From Candidatus Bathyarchaeota archaeon (GTDB lineage Archaea; Thermoproteota; Bathyarchaeia; 40CM-2-53-6): a stretch of DNA of 64,000 nt. The position numbers and the translations under genes were made by a program. Positions 20,638-33,105 of the stretch are shown here, piece by piece. The notes beneath the pieces are model-generated. The model was given only the letters and a program-made list of their open reading frames with translations. It did not search any database and was not told where the DNA came from. Each line of letters starts with the position of its first letter. Position 1 is the first letter of the stretch. The stretch covers positions 43,840 to 107,839 of the forward strand of contig CAWHWX010000034.1 of NCBI GenBank assembly GCA_963833125.1. The letters are read 5' to 3'.

Positions 20638-23067
20638 ATGAAACGATCTCGACAATTACTCCCGTGCCTCGTGATCTTTTTAGCCCTTATGATTCCCGCC
20701 ACTCAAATCGCATTCGCAATTCCGCCACTTGCAGCCGGCACATTTTCACCCGGTACAATTGTAGTTCCAATGGATGACAAGCAGGTCGATAGGATTCATG
20801 TTTACGGTTTCATTCACGAATTCCTGAGGAACAACCCAGGAAGCGTGGTCGCTCGTATTATCGAACCACCAAACGTGATTCTTCAAACAGACCTGACTCC
20901 AGCGGGAGTGCTCTATCAAGGAGGCCCGTTCCTCATCGATTCAAGCTTTACTTCCGCTGTAAACGCGATGTTAGCTAATGCGACCTTCTCAAAAGTAACG
21001 ACCACCCGTCTGTCAACCACGTTCACCTCGAACCGAGTCTTCTTCGTCCGGCAGCCTACTCGGATTCTTGTAATCAGTGACGGTTATTGGGGGAAGACCT
21101 TCCTGACGTTGGGCAGGATGGGTATCAGCTACACCCAGATCTCCACCGCTCAGGCTATGGCTAACCCATCAATCATCAATCAGTATACCTTGATCGTTCT
21201 GGACAGTCCGGGTTGGTACGGGAATCCGTCTGCCTATACGCCGTTGCACAGGTCGCAAATTACGGCTGTGTATAATACGATTCAGGCGCGAGTTTCGGCA
21301 GGAAATGAGGTCATGTTTACCGATGCCGCGATATTCGACCTGAATTCTACGTTTCCAGGATACGTCAAGTTGGGAAACCCTGGTGAGACTGGGTCATGGA
21401 AGAGCATGATGAACAATCCGACCAAGGGCGACTCTGGATTTGATGCCGAATTTCCAAGTCAATACTACAACCCAGGCCCCACTCCCAACGCAGTTACCAT
21501 ATTCACTGAGGAGGGTGTTGGAAATTGGGTTCCTAACGGGGTTCATCCAGGCCACACAGGCGACGTCAGGATTATAATGGATAGTACGAATTACGGAATC
21601 CCGAAACTTCCCTACTCGATCCTTGCCTTCTACTTCCCCTACGGGAACGGTATAGTTGAAGGGCTCGCGCTTCAACCCTACGAGCAGCTGTACCCAACCT
21701 ACGCGGATTACAACGGGTATTATGCTGTATACCAGATTTATGGAAACAAATTCGTCGAAGGGCTGTCAGCAGACTTCTCACTCACGGCCTCCCCGCCGTC
21801 CGTAACGGTACAGAAGACCCAAACCGCCACCTACCAAGTCACGATTTCTTCGATTAGTAGTTTCTCAGGAACGGTTAACCTTCAAGTAAGTGGCCTACCT
21901 CCTGGCGCCCAAGCAGTCTTCACCCCTTCGGGATCAGTCGCGCTCGGCCAAGGTCAGTCTGTGGCTGAGACACTCAGCGTCCTCACGACTCAGAGCACGC
22001 CTCTCGGCAGTTACAACCTAACAATAACAGGCAGCACGAGCCAACCACTGATAACTCATAACGTTGTTGTTGGCCTCGTTGTCACCACGCCACCCAGTGA
22101 CTTCGGCATCGCGATAGCACCCAATCGACTCTACGTGAATCAAGGCCAATGCGGAAACTTCACTATCACCGTGAATTCCATTGGAACCTTTAGCTCCGCG
22201 GTTAATCTCACACTAACCGGATTGCCCGCGCACGTATCTAGCCAATTCACAACGAACCCAATAACGCCGCCAGCGGGAGCTACTGTTCAGTCGCTTCTGA
22301 AGGTGTGCCCAGCGTCCACCGCGGCTCCAGGTAATTACACGATCGTAATCGGTGGGACGAGCGGGGTTACGGTTCATACCGTTAACGCTATTCTGAGCAT
22401 TCCGGGACCGACTGTCGTCACATATCCGTTTAACCCATTGATCTTCTGGCTCGTCATTGGCATGCTACTCCTCGCGCTGGGTTTAGCGCTACTTGCCTTC
22501 GCGCTTTCAGGGAAACGTAGGCGGGTAGCCCCTGCAGCCGTTCCGATGGTTGCAGTCGCGCCACCGCCTAGGCAGCTGATACGATATATTCTGCCCATGC
22601 CTACCGTTCGTTGCAGGTATTGCGGCAGAGTCATGCCTCTTAACACGGTCTATTGTCCCTTCTGCGGAAGACCACAAGTCGTTCTACCGCCTCCGGCGCC
22701 ACGACTTACCTCAGCTCGCCGACTAGGTGGAAAGAACATCATTGCAGTAATCCTATCGCTCTTATCAGGAATCTTAGTATTGCTGAATAGTGCTGCACTG
22801 CTTTCGCCTTCCTTCTTCGCTACATGGTCATCCATATTCTTCTGGCTACCGACCCTCGGACCGTCCTACGCCTTCATGCTTGGAGCAATAATCGGTCTAA
22901 CATTGATTCTCGGCGCGATCATAATGGCACTAAGTAACGGAGCTCTCGCTGATGTGATAATATTCCCATTCGCAATCTTCAGCTTAATCGTCGGAGGAGG
23001 ATTCATCGCAGGAATGATCCTAGGAATTCTGGGCGGAATCCTCGCGATTGCCCGACGCAACTCTTAA
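20638..23067 (+). CDS. Large surface protein: signal peptide, extracellular domain, two Ig-like repeats, TM helix, zinc ribbon, C-terminal TM bundle
   Basis: Signal peptide; two DF(S/G)L...VNL...GLP...GxYx(L/I) repeats; TM then KRRR; CRYC..CPFC; 3-4 Gly-rich TM helices. Confidence 0.75.
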   Translation: MKRSRQLLPCLVIFLALMIPATQIAFAIPPLAAGTFSPGTIVVPMDDKQVDRIHVYGFIHEFLRNNPGSVVARIIEPPNVILQTDLTPAGVLYQGGPFLIDSSFTSAVNAMLANATFSKVTTTRLSTTFTSNRVFFVRQPTRILVISDGYWGKTFLTLGRMGISYTQISTAQAMANPSIINQYTLIVLDSPGWYGNPSAYTPLHRSQITAVYNTIQARVSAGNEVMFTDAAIFDLNSTFPGYVKLGNPGETGSWKSMMNNPTKGDSGFDAEFPSQYYNPGPTPNAVTIFTEEGVGNWVPNGVHPGHTGDVRIIMDSTNYGIPKLPYSILAFYFPYGNGIVEGLALQPYEQLYPTYADYNGYYAVYQIYGNKFVEGLSADFSLTASPPSVTVQKTQTATYQVTISSISSFSGTVNLQVSGLPPGAQAVFTPSGSVALGQGQSVAETLSVLTTQSTPLGSYNLTITGSTSQPLITHNVVVGLVVTTPPSDFGIAIAPNRLYVNQGQCGNFTITVNSIGTFSSAVNLTLTGLPAHVSSQFTTNPITPPAGATVQSLLKVCPASTAAPGNYTIVIGGTSGVTVHTVNAILSIPGPTVVTYPFNPLIFWLVIGMLLLALGLALLAFALSGKRRRVAPAAVPMVAVAPPPRQLIRYILPMPTVRCRYCGRVMPLNTVYCPFCGRPQVVLPPPAPRLTSARRLGGKNIIAVILSLLSGILVLLNSAALLSPSFFATWSSIFFWLPTLGPSYAFMLGAIIGLTLILGAIIMALSNGALADVIIFPFAIFSLIVGGGFIAGMILGILGGILAIARRNS

Positions 23068-23499: not shown

Positions 23500-24675
23500 C
23501 TAAGTAGTGTGAATTTCCACAATGTCCTGATCGCCTAGCACATGCTCAGGGCCGACTCGTTCGCCCGCGAACTTGCTAGTGGAACCCCATATTCTTGAGT
23601 ACCGATACCTCTCTGCTAGGTTGGTGTGTATACTGTTGGCAAGCTCCTTGACAGTCGTCCCTGCGCGTACCACGAAGGGGTGGTCGGACGGCTTCGGATG
23701 GTTTGGCTCCTTGGTGTACACTCGGATGATTCCCAAAGATTCGAATAACTTGCCCCCTATCACGGTCAATCCTTGCCCGGTTAAGCACGATGTGAGTGTG
23801 GTTGGAAGGAAATCCGGAACGTAGCTTATGAATTTCGATGAGTTTTCTCTTCCAAAGTCAAGGTCAATTTTGTTGGCGACTAGGAGAGTTGGCTTGTACA
23901 GCGTCACATTCTCTAGTACAGCGTCTTCCACATCGCCGATGGACGCACTTCCGTAGATCCTTACTAGCGCGCTCCTGATGCCGTAGCCGTGCAATAATTC
24001 ACGAATCTGCTCGTGAGAAACCGAATCTTGCGTACTCGTCGTCGCAATCCGTATTTCTCCAGAACCTTTCGTTGGAACTATCTCAACTCGCGATATAGGT
24101 TTCTGAATCGATATGTCTGACTCCTCTAGACTCTCGGTGATTAGTTCAAGTTGACGGTGCGGTTCGTTTGTCAGATCTACAACGACGATTAACCCGTCGC
24201 AACGGTGAATTAGATCAATGGATTCGGGTTGAAATTGGTATCGTCCACTTCGCGCAAGTCGGGGTGCAGGGACTTCTACTAACTGTATCTGAATGTCTTG
24301 ATATTGCAGAATCCCGGGTATCGGGTGTTCTGTTGTGTATTCGTATGAGGCGACGGTAACCTGTGCATTTGTCAGTGACCTCAGGAGGCTGCTCTTGCCG
24401 GCATTCGTCGGGCCAAGTATCATGACTTGCGCGGCCCCCTCGCGCTCTATGAACCATGAAGACTTACCGCCAGCGTGTCTGCCGCGTAGGCTGATGATTT
24501 CTTGCTTAAGTTCTGCGATCTTCGTCTTGACTTGAGCTCTGAGTCTCTCGTTTCCCTTATGCTGCGGAATCGCGGCGAGAAACTCGGCGTATGCTTGAAG
24601 TTTTTCCTTAGGGTTCTTCGAGGTCTGAGCCAGTTGCCATTTAGCTTTGGCTTCGTCGGTAAGGTTTGCCGGCAG
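23500..24675 (-). CDS. DRG/OBG family GTPase with TGS domain, CTG start
   Basis: GPTNAGKS, YEYTT, NKID, IRVYTK, TGS domain; frame open 84 codons upstream of the ORF-track ATG to CTG-CCG-GCA-AAC-CTT (MPANL...IPQHKGNERLRAQVKTKIA). Confidence 0.88.
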   Translation of the reverse strand: MPANLTDEAKAKWQLAQTSKNPKEKLQAYAEFLAAIPQHKGNERLRAQVKTKIAELKQEIISLRGRHAGGKSSWFIEREGAAQVMILGPTNAGKSSLLRSLTNAQVTVASYEYTTEHPIPGILQYQDIQIQLVEVPAPRLARSGRYQFQPESIDLIHRCDGLIVVVDLTNEPHRQLELITESLEESDISIQKPISRVEIVPTKGSGEIRIATTSTQDSVSHEQIRELLHGYGIRSALVRIYGSASIGDVEDAVLENVTLYKPTLLVANKIDLDFGRENSSKFISYVPDFLPTTLTSCLTGQGLTVIGGKLFESLGIIRVYTKEPNHPKPSDHPFVVRAGTTVKELANSIHTNLAERYRYSRIWGSTSKFAGERVGPEHVLGDQDIVEIHTT

Positions 24676-25926: not shown

Positions 25927-26885
25927 ATGTTCGGAACATTAATATACGCCGCACTTCGACACAAGAAAATCGGTTCCATCAAGGAGACTACGGCCAAAGT
26001 GCGGACACATGGAAGACTGACCCTCGCACTGTACCTGCTGCTCATACTCATTCTACCTTTGCTGATGGCTGGCATTCAAGCCGCCAAGGCAGATCAACCA
26101 CTAGTCCGAACTGAATCCGTACAACTCAACGTCGGCGACACGCTTGTCATCCGGAGCGACCACCTAGCCATACAACAGGTCTTCGTCGAAGGCAATTTCT
26201 CAACCACCCAGCTCATCAAACCCAGTCAATACCCAACAAATGACTTCGAACTCCAAGCTGGATCAGCCGGCGGCTACGGGGTAAGGGTGATTTTCAGTCA
26301 GGCGACCGACTACAATGTCAACCTATTCGTTAGGCAGGATGGAACCAACGCGATTTGAAAACAGTACGAGCTACTACGTATCCGGGGGGACACTCGAACT
26401 CGACGTGAGCGCTTACTTCAACCCAAGACCCATTGACATTGCAGCCGTTGCACCCTTGATTTCCCCATGGGACAGCTTAGTGGATTGGTTTGGCAGCTTC
26501 GGTCAGGCGTTCCCGTTGTGGGTCAAAGCCCTATACCTATTGCTAGGAGTACAATTTCTCGCTGTTGGCGGTTTGTGGATTCGACGCGAGACCGCAAGCC
26601 GAGAAGGGACCGCCCAGCGCTTGGACGGCGGGGACAAAGCCTACCTCTGGCTAGACATCGTTTACAAATTCCTACTAGCCTCGTTTGTCGCCATCGTGGC
26701 GATTATGGGAGGTGAGCTGATTCTACTATTCGTGTTGCGCTTCATGTTCCTGGTCTCAATCAACCTCCTTTCGCTATGGGATCTTTTCGTGGTGGGCTTT
26801 GCCGCGGGTGCGGTCATCATAGTCGTACCTGATCCGTTTCACGCTCGAGAAAGGTTTCGACCTGAAACCTGTGGAAAGTGAGTAA
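25927..26885 (+). CDS. Membrane protein with N-terminal TM/signal, extracellular beta domain and 3-4 C-terminal TM helices (two frameshifts)
   Basis: ORFs 25927-26358 and 26315-26881 join near 26350; corrected C-terminus reads YLIRFTLEKGFDLKPVESE* ending at 26885, overlapping the next start. Confidence 0.65.
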
Positions 26886-29643
26886 TATGGAGGGCAAGCT
26901 TGACGATATTGAAGCCAGCCTACAAACCACGCTAGAAACTGAATCCGAGGAAACCTGGTGGAAGAAAACTGCGCCATTGAGGTGGGCGAACTATGTTCCA
27001 CTCCGCCTCGTAGATAGGGAGTTTGTCAGGTGGCGAAAGTCAAGGATTTCGCCAAGGAAGTTTCGGAAGATACAACAACGGCTAGACCGTTTATACCCTC
27101 CAACCAGATTCTCCGCTACGAAGCTAATCGGTCGCGATAAAGAATACAACTTGCTGCTGGATTCATTCAGACTGCACGTCCTTAAACACCCAATGCTCAG
27201 AAAATGGTTCAACAAGGACGAACTTCCAAAAGCGATTTGCCTGACCGGTGAAAGTGGCACCGGGAAAACATTCCTAACAATGGTTTCCTTGAAACAGATG
27301 CTGCTTGAGGCTCACAAGAACGGAATCTACCTATCCCCCATCATCATCAAGGGATCAGACGTATTCTCAGAATACTACGGTAGGAGTACCAAGCAGTTAG
27401 GGAAGCTTCTGGAACAAGCCGCCTCAGCCCCTTCAGTCGTCTACATTGATGAATTCCAAAGCTTCGGAAGAAAAGTACGTGGGGAAACAGGAACTGAACT
27501 GGAGGATACCCGAGTACAGGACGAGATAAACCGTTGGCTTGACAAAATCACAACCAACGAAGCAAGAACGCTCGTCATAGTCGCTACCAATTCTTACGAA
27601 CAAACTCGCGAAGACATCCGCCGTCGACTCACACGTGTGGATCTAGATTCAGGCGTGACGAGGGAAATGCTGCTCGCTATTGTGGACGACAGAGCTACGG
27701 CTGAGGGTTGGAGAGGAGTTTCGTCAACAGAGATACTTGAGGTCCTCGAACGAGAAGCCGCCCTGCGAAGACATGGTTCGATCACTCCCAACGACATACT
27801 AGGAGTCTTCATAGAGGTGAAACGGGCCAAGGAAGTGCCCTTACTCGAAACGATCAGACGTTCAATGCCCGGTCCACTTTCGAAATGGACTAAGCCGATA
27901 TACAAGGTAAGTTTGGAAGATTTTGCTCAAGCCGCGCATTCAATGAAGTTCTACGTAGAGCGCGAAAAATCACGAGAAATTACCGACGCCGTCTACCTAG
28001 TTACGCCCAAGGCTAGGAGAGATGACATTGGTGGTCTTCATGACATAAGAGACAAAGTGTTAAACCACATTTCACTCGCTTTCAGTCGAAAAATGTCCCA
28101 ACTCGGTTATGCGTCCAACTGCAGGTTTCTACTATTCGGTCCACCAGGGACGGGAAAGACATTGCTCGCAATGGTAGCGGCGGCCGAGAACAAAGTCGCT
28201 TTCATCAAAGTAAGAGGAGGAGAACTGATGAGCGGGGCAACCTACATAGGAGAACCTGAGAAACGTATCAAAGATCTATTCGCTCTCGCCAGACAACGAA
28301 CCCCCTGCATTCTTTTCCTCGACGAAGCCGACGCGATCTTCTGGGGCGCAGATCCCACTGGAAACAAAATCTTGGCACAAGTGAAAGCCGAGCTCAGCGA
28401 GATCAAGCCTGATGAAGGAATCGTGGTCATCGCCGCTTCGAACAAAGAAAACCTCATCGACCAAGCAACCAGAGACAGGTTTGAACCCAACGTCTACTAC
28501 GTCCACCCCCCGCTGAACGATCAAGAATGGCATGAAGTGGTAGGCATCCACCTACGAAGATTCGATCGGTTCATACATCCAGAAGTCGATGCAGCGAAAA
28601 TCACACGTTTGCTTAGAATGCAACGAATCCTCAGCCCCAGAGCCGCATCTGAAACTATTGCAGAAGCCCACAGGCTATGGGCGTCGGAAATAAGCGCGGT
28701 CAGTGAATTGCGTGCTTGCAAAGATAACGGGGATAGGGAGGCGGTTGAAAAGAAGTATTCGACGGACCTAAGCAGGCTGCGTTCTGCGCTTGACGGCTCA
28801 GAGCATCCGCAATTGTCAATTGAGCAAATCGACGAAAGCAACTATCCGATGCGCCTCTACCACTTTGAAAAAGCGATTCAGGCACTTGAATCGAACCAGG
28901 CTAGACAAAGGAGAGAGATGGAAGAAGCATTAATCCTTACAACACCCACACCAGGAGCTTCCTTCGGGCTCTACGCTACCGAAGACGGAACCGGGGGCAT
29001 AATCACGGTTCAATGCTCAGTCAGGCCTATGATATCCGGCGAACGCCAAGTCTCTGTGACTGGGAATGCAACTTCAGCCGTAATCGGTCAAAGCGTCGTC
29101 TCAGATGAGTCAGTGCTTCAAAGTGCGGAAAACGCCACAGAAGCAATCAGCTCACTTCTATGGGCCGCGTCTCAAGTGGACCTAAGTCGGTTACACATAC
29201 ACTTCCAGATCAGGAGTATTTTGGAGGGCGCGCCTGGGCAAGGAGTTTCAGGGCCAAGCGCCGGGTTAGCTATGGTCTTAGCTCTCCTCTCAGAGCTGGC
29301 TGGACTTCCAATCTCCCCCGCCACTGTCGCAACCGGAACCATAGGGGTAAAGCTCGACGTGGGGCCGGTAGGTGGGCTGGGTGGCTACGGGACCCAAACC
29401 GGAAAGATCGTCGGGATCCTGAAATCCCAAAAGATTCGCATTACCGACTTGGTCCTGCCAGCAGCTAACTTCGAAGCTGCAGGTGACGAAATGCGGATTC
29501 TGACCGAGGAAGGAGTGAACGTACGTCCTGTGTCGGACGTATCGGAGTGTTTGAAGACAATCTTCGGTAAGGATATGTACGAACTAGTGGCTGAAATAAA
29601 GAAAAGGTTTGAGACAGCTCGGTTGGTAGCTCAGTCGTATTAG
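26878..29643 (+). CDS. Tandem AAA+ (Cdc48/VAT-like) ATPase fused to a Lon-type S16 protease domain
   Basis: D1 GESGTGKT/VYIDE/ATN; D2 GPPGTGKT/FLDEAD/ASN..RDRF; C-terminal SGPSAGLAM...TGTI...PVGG...K...LPAAN. Confidence 0.85.
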   Translation: MSNMEGKLDDIEASLQTTLETESEETWWKKTAPLRWANYVPLRLVDREFVRWRKSRISPRKFRKIQQRLDRLYPPTRFSATKLIGRDKEYNLLLDSFRLHVLKHPMLRKWFNKDELPKAICLTGESGTGKTFLTMVSLKQMLLEAHKNGIYLSPIIIKGSDVFSEYYGRSTKQLGKLLEQAASAPSVVYIDEFQSFGRKVRGETGTELEDTRVQDEINRWLDKITTNEARTLVIVATNSYEQTREDIRRRLTRVDLDSGVTREMLLAIVDDRATAEGWRGVSSTEILEVLEREAALRRHGSITPNDILGVFIEVKRAKEVPLLETIRRSMPGPLSKWTKPIYKVSLEDFAQAAHSMKFYVEREKSREITDAVYLVTPKARRDDIGGLHDIRDKVLNHISLAFSRKMSQLGYASNCRFLLFGPPGTGKTLLAMVAAAENKVAFIKVRGGELMSGATYIGEPEKRIKDLFALARQRTPCILFLDEADAIFWGADPTGNKILAQVKAELSEIKPDEGIVVIAASNKENLIDQATRDRFEPNVYYVHPPLNDQEWHEVVGIHLRRFDRFIHPEVDAAKITRLLRMQRILSPRAASETIAEAHRLWASEISAVSELRACKDNGDREAVEKKYSTDLSRLRSALDGSEHPQLSIEQIDESNYPMRLYHFEKAIQALESNQARQRREMEEALILTTPTPGASFGLYATEDGTGGIITVQCSVRPMISGERQVSVTGNATSAVIGQSVVSDESVLQSAENATEAISSLLWAASQVDLSRLHIHFQIRSILEGAPGQGVSGPSAGLAMVLALLSELAGLPISPATVATGTIGVKLDVGPVGGLGGYGTQTGKIVGILKSQKIRITDLVLPAANFEAAGDEMRILTEEGVNVRPVSDVSECLKTIFGKDMYELVAEIKKRFETARLVAQSY

Positions 29644-30573
29644 ATATCGAGCTTGAGCGCTTCTTTTAATCCCTTGTACCGGTTTCTGACTGTTACCTCG
29701 GTAACGTTAGCTACTTCAGCTATCTCTTTCTGGGTTTTCTTTTCCCCTTCGAGGACACACGCCACGTAGAGCGATGCCGCGGCCAAGCCCATTGGGTCTT
29801 TGCCTGCGACTATGCCTTTTCGTTTCGCCTCGTTGATGATTCTGATTGCACGCTGCTGGGTTGGCATCGAGATTTCGACTTTGGTTGCTATCTTTGAGAT
29901 GCATTTCACTGGATCCTCGACTGGCATTCTAAGGTCGAGTTCCCTGACGAGGAGTCGGTAGCATCTTGCTACGTCCTTCTTGCGGATCCTGCTCGCTGCG
30001 GATACGTCTTTGAGGGTTCTTGGTGTTTCGGACATTCGGCATGCGGCGTAGAGTGAAGCGGCGGCTATGGCTGCGATTGACCGTCCTCTTACCAGGCCGT
30101 TGTCCAGAGCTTTGCGGTAAACGATTGCGGCCCGTTCTTTGATGGAAGCGGGTATGTGTAGCATGTCAGTTAAGCGATCGAGTTCGGCCATCGCTTGGGC
30201 TAGGTTTCTGTCGGCTGAGGAGTGGACTCGTGTTCGTATCTGCCATTTTCTCAGGCGGAGCATTTCAAGTCTGGTTGCCAGGGGCAGTTGGCGACCGTAC
30301 GCGTCCTCGGTTCACCCGATCAATTACAGTTGATAATCCTTTGTCGTGAATGGAGAATGATGTTGGGATACCTACGCAACCTCGTTCATCCTTCTCTTCT
30401 TTGGTGAAGGCGCGCCATTCTGGACCTGTGTTTAACGAGTGTTCACTTATGACTAGGCCACAGTTGTGGCAACTGATCTCGCCGACATCGTAATCTTCTA
30501 CTAGGTTTGTGCTGCCACATTCGGGGCAGTTAGTTAACTTTCCAACTTTCCTTGTGGTTGCGCTTGTACTCAT
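29640..30573 (-). CDS. tfb: Transcription initiation factor IIB (frameshift near 30305)
   Basis: CPECG..CHNCG zinc ribbon, GPEWRAF, HDKGLST, RLRKWQ, LVRGRS, GKDPMGLAAA, VTEVTVRNRYK. Confidence 0.95.
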
Positions 30574-31831: not shown

Positions 31832-33105
31832 CTAGTTTGAAACCTTCATCCACCCCTCCAACCGTTGCCAATCCCAGTCATAGTTCTCTGGAACGGCGAA
31901 ACCGTAGATTATGCACCCATGCCAAACCGAGAACTGCGGTGAACTGGTCATCTTGACTGAAACATTCTTGATACCGCGATCCCGCAGCAGAAGACGCACC
32001 TTCGCGGGAGCGTCAACTGCGATCTCTTGTAACTTGGGCGGTACGGTCCAGCTGAAATTTCCACCCGACAAGAGGACTTCGCGATAGAGCATGGGTTGGA
32101 GTTCAACTGGGCAACGTTCAACCGAGGCGATTATCGCCTCACCGAAATCCAGCATACCCCTGAAGACCGTGTCGCCCATCTTGACGTCCTTCGGTCTCGG
32201 CATTCCGCAGGCTGAAGTAGCTCTCGAAAATCTCGTGGTTCGGATTGAACACATATTCACCGATAAGATATCTTGACCACGAGTCCTTCTCAAGGTCTAT
32301 CTCAACACGCATTTCCGGGGACTCTGTACTTTGCTCTGGATTTTCGCGGGAATTTCTTTGCGTCCGCGATTGCGCTGTCCAGGTTTCCGGGGACTAGGCC
32401 AATGTTTTCCTTGACCTTCCTTACTACCGCTTCCTCATTTGCCAGGTCGCCATAACCAGAATCCTTGAGGATCTCCGATGTTATCGCATTCGCGTCTCCG
32501 CCGCCCCGGTTCAACGCTACTTGTGCGGCTCGGATGGGATATTTCGAGATTGGGCACACTTGACTGTTTCCATGTCCGGACTCGATAACCACACAAGTAG
32601 TGACTCCATGGCCGATGGCGACGGCGAATGGTTGCGGGATGACGGTGACTGCTCTGATCCTTCCGTGGTTATTGTCTTGGAATAACCCAAGCAGTTTCTC
32701 GTACATATAGCGGGGGGAAACTGATGACAGGGACGCGACTACATAGTATCCTTGAAAGCCATTATTTGGTTCAGGTTTGAAGGCGTCTAAGCTGTAGGAG
32801 GATAGGCTGCTTACTCACCGCCAGGCTTGGTCGTCGCTTTTGTCGATCATGCCGTTGCGCATGGGATAGATCAGGCGACTTGACAGATCTTCGGCGGACT
32901 GCAAGTAAAGAGGCACGTCTTCCCCCACAATCACGTCGGATGTCGGTTCGAATGCCTTGTAGATGACGGAGCTTTTGTCGGGGAAATAGCCCCGGTTGTT
33001 TACGATTCTTGGATTTTCGCCAAGGGTTATTGGGCCAAATTTGAAGTCGCTTGTGCCGAAGTCCATAGCGAAGGTATAGTGGCTTCGATAGTTGTCGCCG
33101 CTCAT
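31832..33105 (-). CDS. Crenactin-type archaeal actin (split by several indels)
   Basis: YTFAMDFGTS..KFGPITL, YPMRNG, AVTVIPQPFAVAI, ESGHGNSQVCPIS, ALNRGGGDANAIT.EILKD, LSGGNFSW, PQFSVW.G.IIYG, EGW, collinear with crenactin. Confidence 0.88.

Follow-up and report, generated by a model that had tools for sequence, protein, structure and literature searches.

A two-gene locus of Bathyarchaeia and other archaea pairing a tandem-AAA Lon-type enzyme with a membrane protein: a candidate membrane-tethered, ATP-dependent protease

Two adjoining genes of a membrane-tethered protease candidate

We analyzed a stretch of 64,000 nucleotides from a Candidatus Bathyarchaeota archaeon (assembly GCA_963833125.1, contig CAWHWX010000034.1, positions 43,840 to 107,839; the whole stretch is called the window) and, within it, two adjoining forward-strand genes: one for an enzyme that joins two classical AAA ATPase modules and a Lon-type protease domain in a single chain and, directly upstream, one for a membrane protein, here called the partner. 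Judged from their sequences, the two genes probably encode a two-subunit, membrane-tethered, ATP-dependent protease. Across the family the fused architecture recurs, catalytic and ATPase residues are conserved, the gene pair is kept together, and in Asgard genomes the two genes are fused into one. The features of the pair, in window coordinates, are as follows.

25927..26885, forward strand: putative membrane-anchor (partner) gene, about 318 codons in relatives, here in three frames
26354, forward strand: site of the first frameshift, where a TTT run has one base more than in a related strain's 1054-nt contig
26825, forward strand: site of the second frameshift, with one base that a relative's single 156-nt contig (depth 3.81) lacks; the conserved C-terminal tail then lies in a third frame
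26878..29643, forward strand: AAA-AAA-Lon open reading frame (ORF), 921 aa from GTG 26878; probable true start ATG 26887 (918 aa), from the N-termini of relatives
26878..27117, forward strand: N-terminal region (residues 1-80), acidic over residues 1-25, then basic and Trp-rich, with the conserved pattern WW...R...PL...YR.WR
27130..27972, forward strand: D1, a classical AAA module (about residues 85-365); Walker A 27247-27270, pore loop SEYYG 27367-27381, Walker B D191/E192 27448-27453
28000..28902, forward strand: D2, a classical AAA module with an enlarged helical lid (about residues 375-675); Walker A 28138-28161, pore loop TYIGE 28240-28254, Walker B 28318-28332
28936..29565, forward strand: Lon S16 proteolytic domain (residues 687-896; PF05362), A-type centre with Pro before Ser; PDB profile match at E 8.4e-23
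29257..29259, forward strand: codon of Ser794, the predicted catalytic serine (GPSAG), which aligns with the catalytic Ser of solved Lons
29404..29406, forward strand: codon of Lys843, the predicted catalytic lysine, 49 residues past Ser794, which aligns with the catalytic Lys

A single chain with a tandem ATPase core

The enzyme ORF is uninterrupted, as given by the window's ORF list, and its real product probably starts at ATG 26887, because the N-termini of the closest database relatives (917-919 aa) begin there. Pfam models place AAA (PF00004) in it twice (E 2.8e-49) and Lon_C (PF05362) once, over residues 687-896 (E 1.3e-12; 48.2 bits against a gathering cut-off of 21.1), and an ORF of this length with such E-values is not a chance one. 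The preliminary description of this DNA had proposed two classical AAA modules and a Lon domain in one uninterrupted ORF; the Pfam matches agree, and its motifs all lie where it had put them, with GESGTGKT at residue 124, SEYYG at 164, and YIDEF at 189; GPPGTGKT at 421, TYIGE at 455, and LDEAD at 481; and GPSAG at 792, PVGG at 830, and Lys843. It had further described a protein with a very basic, Trp-rich N-terminus and without a transmembrane (TM) helix. No TM helix was found in the enzyme, the sole hydrophobic 19-mer (residues 794-812) lying inside the Lon domain and starting at the predicted catalytic Ser, and the N-terminus is indeed basic and Trp-rich over residues 26-80 (pI 11.9, 16 Lys or Arg, 4 Trp), but residues 1-25 are acidic instead (pI 4.05). 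With W28 and L42 near-invariant among 65 aligned enzyme sequences, residues 1-80 are proposed as a candidate docking element for the anchor or the membrane surface. The C-terminus reads Q-S-Y, with Tyr last and not penultimate, and is not an HbYX tail.

Residues 102-558 are collinear with D1-D2 of the Cdc48 of the same genome (28% identity, E 2e-37), and the tandem AAA core is likewise collinear with positions 198-639 of the CDC48 model TIGR01243, on which the whole protein scores 168.5 bits against a cut-off of 802.65. Among solved structures, the best matches for the ATPase part were VAT, Rix7, Afg2, and p97, and in NCBIfam the two modules matched CDC48, PAN, and FtsH best; D2, whose best Pfam AAA stretch covers residues 418-539, matches VAT D2 at E 1.8e-50. 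The likeness to Cdc48 that had been suggested earlier holds for this core and not for the rest of the chain: no CDC48_N or CDC48_2 Pfam match was found in the enzyme, the roughly 80 residues before D1 leave no room for a Cdc48 N-domain, and the HbYX tail is missing. The ATPase of Lon itself belongs to a different AAA+ clade from the PF00004 proteins, and the Lon models TIGR00763 and TIGR00764 match the protease part alone, with scores far under their cut-offs.

In alignments of 22 and 65 sequences, G127, G129, and K130 of D1 are invariant and D191, E192, and R248-250 (RRR) are at least 90% conserved, while K427, D482, E483, the sensor-1 residue N522, and R534 of D2 are all invariant. Both pore loops retain the aromatic-hydrophobic-Gly motif. 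Because the Walker, sensor, and pore-loop motifs are kept, both AAA rings look competent. On the best reading of these comparisons, the unfoldase core would go back to a tandem of the Cdc48 kind and the protease to a Lon whose centre was A-type.

A conserved Ser-Lys pair with a longer spacing

HMMER alignment of the C-terminal 242 residues with the A. fulgidus LonB protease domain brings Ser794 and Lys843 onto the catalytic Ser and Lys and leaves a 6-residue gap in LonB between PVGG and Lys. A profile of 29 family C-termini matched Lon protease domains in PDB (best E 8.4e-23, A. fulgidus LonB) in an identical register, and its consensus has a 4-residue insertion relative to known Lon. The distance from Ser794 is +39 to Gly833 and +49 to Lys843; the spacing claimed from the first inspection (PVGG at +39, Lys at +49, an insertion of 6 residues) is borne out by the motif positions and by the alignment to LonB.

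Ser794 is invariant in all three alignments (22/22, 29/29, and 65/65 sequences), and Lys843 is invariant in 29/29 and at least 90% conserved in the sets of 22 and 65. The 29 sequences with an invariant Ser-Lys pair span clades at 30-39% identity to the window enzyme. All clade A members, 5 of the 29 including that of the window, have Lys at +49 (48 intervening residues), and the 24 of clades B and C have it at +47 (46 intervening); the extra residues form a conserved loop, R-G-x-G-K or G-x-G-x-x-T-G-K, and the G-P-S-A/L-G and PVGG motifs are retained across the family. According to the available text of a 2022 paper on LonBA, known LonA and LonB have 42 residues fixed between the catalytic Ser and Lys, i.e. 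+43, and that text holds that no further Lon active-centre variants are known (PMC9569914). The predicted protease site of the present family is conserved but distinct from known Lon sites. A database search with the Lon domain only returned best 120 matches that all came from the same clade.

A spacing unlike that of every Lon characterized in the available part of that paper (PMC9569914) would be compatible with an unfoldase or extractor with a structural, non-proteolytic Lon domain, used as a ring scaffold or substrate exit, that passes its substrates to the proteasome or frees them. LonC offers a parallel, as a Lon fold that was kept while ATPase activity was lost, and the same genome also has Cdc48, PAN, and a LonB-like gene. 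We nevertheless regard such a role as improbable: a dead site would drift, but Ser and Lys are invariant in all 29 sequences and the GPS and PVGG motifs are kept, and the QSY C-terminus is not the HbYX proteasome-docking tail (motif as given in the available text of PMC3493965).

One distant relative, P0136 (1120 aa), has an extra C-terminal domain of about 200 residues (alignment columns ~1300-1505) with an H-E-x-x-H-like motif, possibly a second, metallo-type peptidase domain.

The membrane partner across the family and the Asgard fusions

A membrane-protein ORF lies immediately upstream of the enzyme in 53 of 55 loci, the two misses being contig ends, and the partner's stop and the enzyme's start abut or overlap. 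A further 41 named loci, about 20 of which duplicate genomes already in the 55-locus count, comprised 32 with a separate upstream partner, 3 with a fused one, 1 with too little flank, and 5 with the enzyme ORF cut or undetected. The coupling to a membrane protein put forward in the preliminary description is in this way conserved over 53 of 55 loci, with fusion in 3 Asgard genomes in addition. We found no third conserved gene, as any flanking ORF family was common to at most 6 of 38 loci, each such set coming from closely related genomes.

In most partners, an N-terminal TM is followed by an extracellular domain of about 150 residues and then by 2-4 more TMs, and the short ones (124-137 aa) are the TM bundle alone. 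By BLAST they form 2 families, of 37 loci (clades A and B) and 16 loci (clade C). No Pfam, NCBIfam, or PADLOC model matched any partner tested, and an ESM Atlas search with the partner, which returned unnamed Bathyarchaeota clusters and weak Ig-like and secretin-N look-alikes (TM-score < 0.5), was rejected as uninformative. Partner type tracks the enzyme tree (8 changes against 49.3 in shuffles), and partner and enzyme pairwise identities correlate (r = 0.88, 1176 pairs), both figures being overstated by the non-independence of kin. Mean pairwise identity is 0.21 for the partner and 0.48 for the enzyme.

In three loci from Asgard metagenome-assembled genomes (MAGs) labelled Promethearchaeota, Hodarchaeota, and Odinarchaeota, partner and enzyme are joined in frame in ORFs of 1014-1019 aa, in which a TM-only partner with a conserved acidic tail passes straight into the WW-basic N-terminus of the enzyme. 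The 2 of these 3 ORFs that were scanned with Pfam both carry two AAA modules and Lon_C, and the fused forms are sister to the short-partner clade with 98-100% support. In-frame fusion implies that partner and enzyme act as one unit and that the C-terminus of the former and the N-terminus of the latter lie on the same, cytoplasmic, side of the membrane. Because the two are fused in frame in three Asgard genomes, the upstream membrane protein is most likely the membrane anchor of the enzyme.

The variable extracellular domain of the partner may gate the enzyme from outside the cell, and a signal-gated role of this domain is the main rival to a function in general quality control. The partner would then sense conditions outside and the enzyme would degrade a specific regulator, in the cytoplasm or the membrane, or the partner itself. 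Most partners do carry such a domain, some 150 residues long and set between their first TM and the bundle; it is fast-evolving, in keeping with the lower identity of the partner (0.21 vs 0.48); the 2 partner families look unrelated; and several genomes of the window's genus have two paralogous pairs with different partners, as specialized modules would show. Yet the domain is dispensable, short partners and Asgard fusions being TM-only, no regulator gene is co-conserved, and a stable in-frame fusion would be odd for a partner that is itself the substrate, which leaves a signal-regulated protease unlikely in our view.

The partner gene of the window and its surroundings

In the window itself the partner gene runs over three frames, 25927..26358, 26315..26881, and a short tail to the stop TAA at 26883-26885. 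From N- to C-terminus, its product comprises a TM, an extracellular domain with many N-x-S/T sites, 3-4 further TMs, and a cytoplasmic tail that is acidic. Both larger pieces match an intact relative of 330 aa, P0295, the N-terminal one at 35% identity and the one with the TMs at 66%, and an intact single ORF of about 285-315 aa occupies the same place in the 10 closest relatives examined (L037-L046). Contigs of related strains from public runs lack one base at 26354 and one at 26825, exactly the two changes of frame, and with both extra bases removed the gene reads continuously to a stop one base before ATG 26887. An adjoining membrane protein with an extracellular domain and 3-4 TMs had been described correctly from the sequence, but the stop that had been said to overlap the enzyme's start is that of the out-of-frame tail in a gene frameshifted twice. 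The two single-base insertions are either assembly errors or a real inactivation, and assembly indels are a likely cause because the TFB gene and an apparent actin-like gene in the window are also split.

The TFB gene (window 29640-30573, reverse strand) consists of two ORFs in different frames that meet within three bases, a zinc ribbon (30265..30573, E 1.8e-17) and two TFIIB cyclin repeats (29640..30263, E 5.5e-45), and looks like the outcome of a single-base indel. At 31832-33105 (reverse strand), three ORFs in succession (96, 134, and 153 aa) seem to be fragments of one actin-like (crenactin-type) gene, of which the last alone gives a weak Actin match (E 5.2e-5), below the cut-off. A DRG/Obg-type GTPase ORF (MMR_HSR1 and TGS; 23500-24423, reverse strand) begins at its G1 motif, and its N-terminal part may be lost to a frame error. 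Farther upstream, an 809-aa ORF (20638-23067, forward strand) with a signal-like N-terminus, Thr/Ser/Pro-rich repeats, and several C-terminal TMs has no Pfam match and may be a surface protein. A promoter and terminator scan using bacterial consensus sequences gave counts no higher than in shuffles. In public sequencing runs, the largest share of the stretch that any run covered was 0.17 and no RNA run was listed, which has no bearing on expression.

Distribution and phylogeny of the family

We searched for the enzyme in 5.8 billion proteins with a word-indexed search, whose best 120 matches, as listed, had 61-93% identity; 117 of these 120 carry PF00004 and PF05362, and the 3 exceptions are truncated. 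Those of the listed homologues that have a name go by "AAA family ATPase", "SpoVK/Ycf46/Vps4 family", or "transitional endoplasmic reticulum ATPase". Exhaustive searching of 1.84 billion cluster representatives with HMMER yielded more full-length relatives, at 26-38% identity, and AAA and Lon_C were found together in 22/22 sequences (the 21 distant relatives chosen and the query). An AAA-AAA-Lon_C architecture, first suggested by the one ORF of the window, is on these counts real.

The window does hold frameshifted genes, and an assembly chimera or a frameshift joining separate AAA and Lon genes could on that ground be suspected. This explanation is refuted, and we give it practically no weight: the same ORF of about 910-930 aa occurs in well over a hundred independent assemblies.

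In phylogenetic trees the loci fell into three well-supported clades (A, B, and C), of which A contains the window, and two more clades consisted of database proteins only. Clade B includes named records from Methanomethylicota, Nezhaarchaeota, Bathyarchaeia, Sulfolobales, and Desulfurococcales MAGs and also from the Asgard MAGs labelled Promethearchaeota, Hodarchaeota, and Odinarchaeota. The named-locus search reached this clade only, and the naming of clade C rests on one database label, Marsarchaeota. Near-identical records carry the bacterial labels Acidoferrales, Dormibacteraeota, Terriglobales, and Methylomirabilota (P0005, P0029, P0035, and P0046; L098). These copies are 78-92% identical to that of the window, with L098 identical to the copy of an archaeal genome, and are likely to reflect binning errors or contamination.

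In a phylum sample of 401 genomes taken evenly, with a match threshold of E <= 1e-40, the enzyme was identified in 58 genomes, or in 31 of 334 when good-quality genomes are counted, and the matches cluster by family (16 of 17 genomes in f20 and 5 of 6 in f27). So patchy a distribution implies that the enzyme-partner pair is not essential. Among 31 close relatives, the window genome (G000) included, 18 have the enzyme. Decayed or split enzyme copies were noted at G419:C124, G419:C79, G404:C12, and G416:C3. Three genomes of the window's genus have a second AAA-AAA-Lon paralogue (about 37% identity, clade B), which was not found in G000 (87.8% complete); each has a short, TM-only partner of 126-137 aa, and the loci (L059-L061) are as follows.

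G403:C3:88796-91483, second paralogue
G402:C38:6087-8786, second paralogue
G405:C97:19384-22002, second paralogue

Combinations of AAA and Lon_C are known in defence systems, and PADLOC gave matches to IetA and TRIP13, among others, so that a defence or mobile-element module, akin to the Lon-like BrxL of BREX, was also considered. The PADLOC matches are confined to the generic AAA core and include none to a BrxL or Lon-type defence model; genes with housekeeping functions (SUI1, the DRG-type GTPase, and TFB) surround the pair; one copy per genome follows the lineage, as in f20 (16 of 17); and no defence gene is co-conserved. We hold this explanation to be very improbable.

An ESM Atlas search with the homologue P0002 returned two archaeal AAA and Lon_C clusters and one bacterial cluster of 1140 aa. 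The latter has 93 members, with a phylum recorded for 2 (Thermodesulfobacteriota), PF00004 in 100% and Lon_C in 84%, and a feature score of 0.98; it may be a bacterial analogue of the AAA-AAA-Lon architecture and is offered as a lead only.

Comparison with known energy-dependent proteases

Archaeal LonB (MEROPS S16.005) resembles the enzyme in being an archaeal single-chain ATPase with an S16 Ser-Lys protease at the membrane, and the A. fulgidus LonB domain is the best solved-structure match for its protease domain (E 8.4e-23, family profile). LonB has one Lon-type AAA+ module with an inserted TM anchor, Asp before Ser, and 42 residues between Ser and Lys, according to the available text of PMC9569914. 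Unlike LonB, the enzyme has two classical AAA modules, no TM, a separate anchor subunit, G-P-S in place of G-D-S, and 48 intervening residues, and it scores 33.7 bits on the LonB model TIGR00764 against a cut-off of 516.6. With bacterial and mitochondrial LonA it shares the A-type centre G-P-S-A-G, a soluble ATPase-protease chain, and the Lon_C fold, but LonA has a long N-terminal LON domain, a single AAA+ module, and a different Ser-Lys spacing. The LonA model TIGR00763 matches residues 686-896 only (49.8 bits against a cut-off of 608), and the N-terminal LON domain family is absent from the best 25 of the 27 Pfam matches to the window enzyme.

FtsH likewise combines a classical-clade AAA motor, N-terminal TM helices flanking an extracytoplasmic domain, and a covalently attached protease, and the Asgard fused forms have its order of parts (TM, AAA, protease). 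The same-chain N-terminal TM anchor of FtsH is absent in the window enzyme and present in the three fused Asgard relatives. FtsH, however, has one AAA module and an M41 zinc metalloprotease, whereas the enzyme has two AAA modules, a predicted Ser-Lys protease, and an anchor that is usually separate. No M41 Pfam match was found in the enzyme, and FtsH models match residues 383-577 only, below their cut-offs, with TIGR01241 reaching 110 bits against 600 on the D2 AAA core only.

The Cdc48/VAT system with the 20S proteasome has a tandem D1-D2 of classical AAA modules and couples a double-ring unfoldase to a protease, as the available text of PMC3493965 describes it; unlike Cdc48/VAT, the enzyme has no N-terminal double-psi barrel domain and no HbYX tail, and a Lon-type protease domain is covalently attached. 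ClpAP and ClpCP also set a double-ring AAA+ unfoldase on a serine protease chamber (PMC11570520, in its available part). The Clp ATPases fall in a different AAA+ clade and ClpP, a 14-mer that is folded differently, is a separate protein, whereas in the present case everything but the anchor is in one chain. Taken by family, the enzyme has the S16 domain and the predicted Ser-Lys dyad of Lon; it departs from Lon in spacing and in ATPase type and number, from Cdc48 in N-domain, score, and tail, and from FtsH in protease type. By analogy, it would work most like FtsH or LonB. The 'Lon-like' protease of M. smithii, which has only one ATPase domain and a Tyr where the Ser would be, is not a member of the family (available text of PMC4864567).

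In the phylum sample, the LonB model TIGR00764 matched 43 of 401 genomes at E <= 1e-30, never above its cut-off and from model position 154 onward. LonB may be rare or divergent in this phylum; alternatively, its TM insert may cause the six-frame search to break it up. A complementary distribution of the enzyme and LonB was dropped as unconvincing, with both genes in 4 genomes against about 6 expected by chance among kin that are not independent.

Proposed mechanism and its weighing

We propose that the subunit of 918 or 921 aa would form a ring, presumably a hexamer like other classical AAA and Lon enzymes, in which the stacked D1 and D2 tiers would pull a polypeptide through into the chamber that the Lon-type domains enclose, and Ser794 and Lys843 would cleave it there. 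The cytoplasmic C-terminal end of the anchor would abut, and may bind directly, the basic, Trp-rich N-terminus of the enzyme and so place the D1 entry pore at the membrane surface, much as in FtsH. Substrates might be membrane or membrane-proximal proteins, extracted and degraded using ATP in quality control, an assignment that we make with low confidence.

Several observations weigh against a two-subunit protease of this kind. The 42-residue Ser-Lys rule of known Lons does not hold, the count being 48 here and 46 in most relatives, and the Ser-Lys geometry across the 4-6-residue insertion is a prediction from alignment. Of 21 distant members, 2 (P0136 and P0143) have a degenerate Walker A in D1. 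As for the pairing, the window's own partner gene is frameshifted twice, in family f20 the partner is on the opposite strand, and similarity between the two partner families is no more than marginal (hhalign probability 77.5%, E 1.9e-5). The enzyme is patchy, with 343 of 401 phylum genomes having no match at E <= 1e-40, and its gene is broken in some relatives, matches in G419 having 6-14 internal stops and the G416 copy being split at residue ~690. We still favour the membrane-tethered protease with the confidence given at the outset, and the case for its coupling to a membrane subunit is better than the window sequence alone could show.

Position in the literature and significance

The preliminary description had not recognized the architecture as a described one, and in this it concurs with our finding of no named family or paper in the literature searched, in Pfam/NCBIfam, or in PADLOC. 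No description of a tandem classical-AAA Lon fusion or of the partner was found in full-text literature, a scope with most subscription journals and supplements outside it, and the names Cdc48-Lon, Lon-Cdc48, AAA-AAA-Lon, and VAT-Lon are absent from the papers that one of the searches listed. In its available text, a 2008 survey of serine-protease architectures lists LON-AAA-Lon_C, Sigma54_activat-AAA-Lon_C, Sigma54_activat-Lon_C, Mg_chelatase-Lon_C, Mg_chelat-Sigma54_activat-Lon_C, PDZ-Lon_C, and Lon_C alone, with AAA-AAA-Lon_C not among them (PMC2605481). The corresponding part of the LonBA paper recognizes subfamilies A, B, C, and BA, with one ATPase module each (PMC9569914), and that of a survey of archaeal AAA proteins the groups PAN, CDC48, AMA, and MBA (PMC3493965). 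The AAA-AAA-Lon architecture is present in databases but unnamed, and there is a small but real chance that the family has already been described somewhere.

The gene pair is real, comparison across the family supports the reading given here, and it probably represents an undescribed class of membrane-tethered, double-ring, ATP-dependent protease. In its fullest form the proposal is an undescribed class of self-compartmentalizing protease in TACK and Asgard archaea, in which a single-chain, Cdc48-derived double ring with a modified Lon chamber sits on a dedicated polytopic subunit and extracts and degrades membrane proteins; so much taken together we advance tentatively, with a little less than even confidence.

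The textbook energy-dependent proteases are Lon, FtsH, Clp, HslUV, and the proteasome with PAN or Cdc48. To our knowledge, none of them joins a double classical-AAA ring and a protease in one chain, and archaea are, as far as we know, thought to lack FtsH. With FtsH thought to be missing and a LonB-like gene matched in 43 of 401 genomes, the clearance of membrane proteins in this phylum is poorly understood, and the anchor-coupled AAA-AAA-Lon enzyme is a direct candidate for that function. If the proposal is true, the enzyme would be the functional equivalent of FtsH in archaea and would unite 'Cdc48 plus protease' in one polypeptide. The family also offers a natural experiment in how two AAA tiers feed a Lon chamber and in whether a Lon dyad tolerates a longer Ser-Lys loop. 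The fused form in Asgard genomes makes it relevant to the history of Cdc48-based extraction systems.

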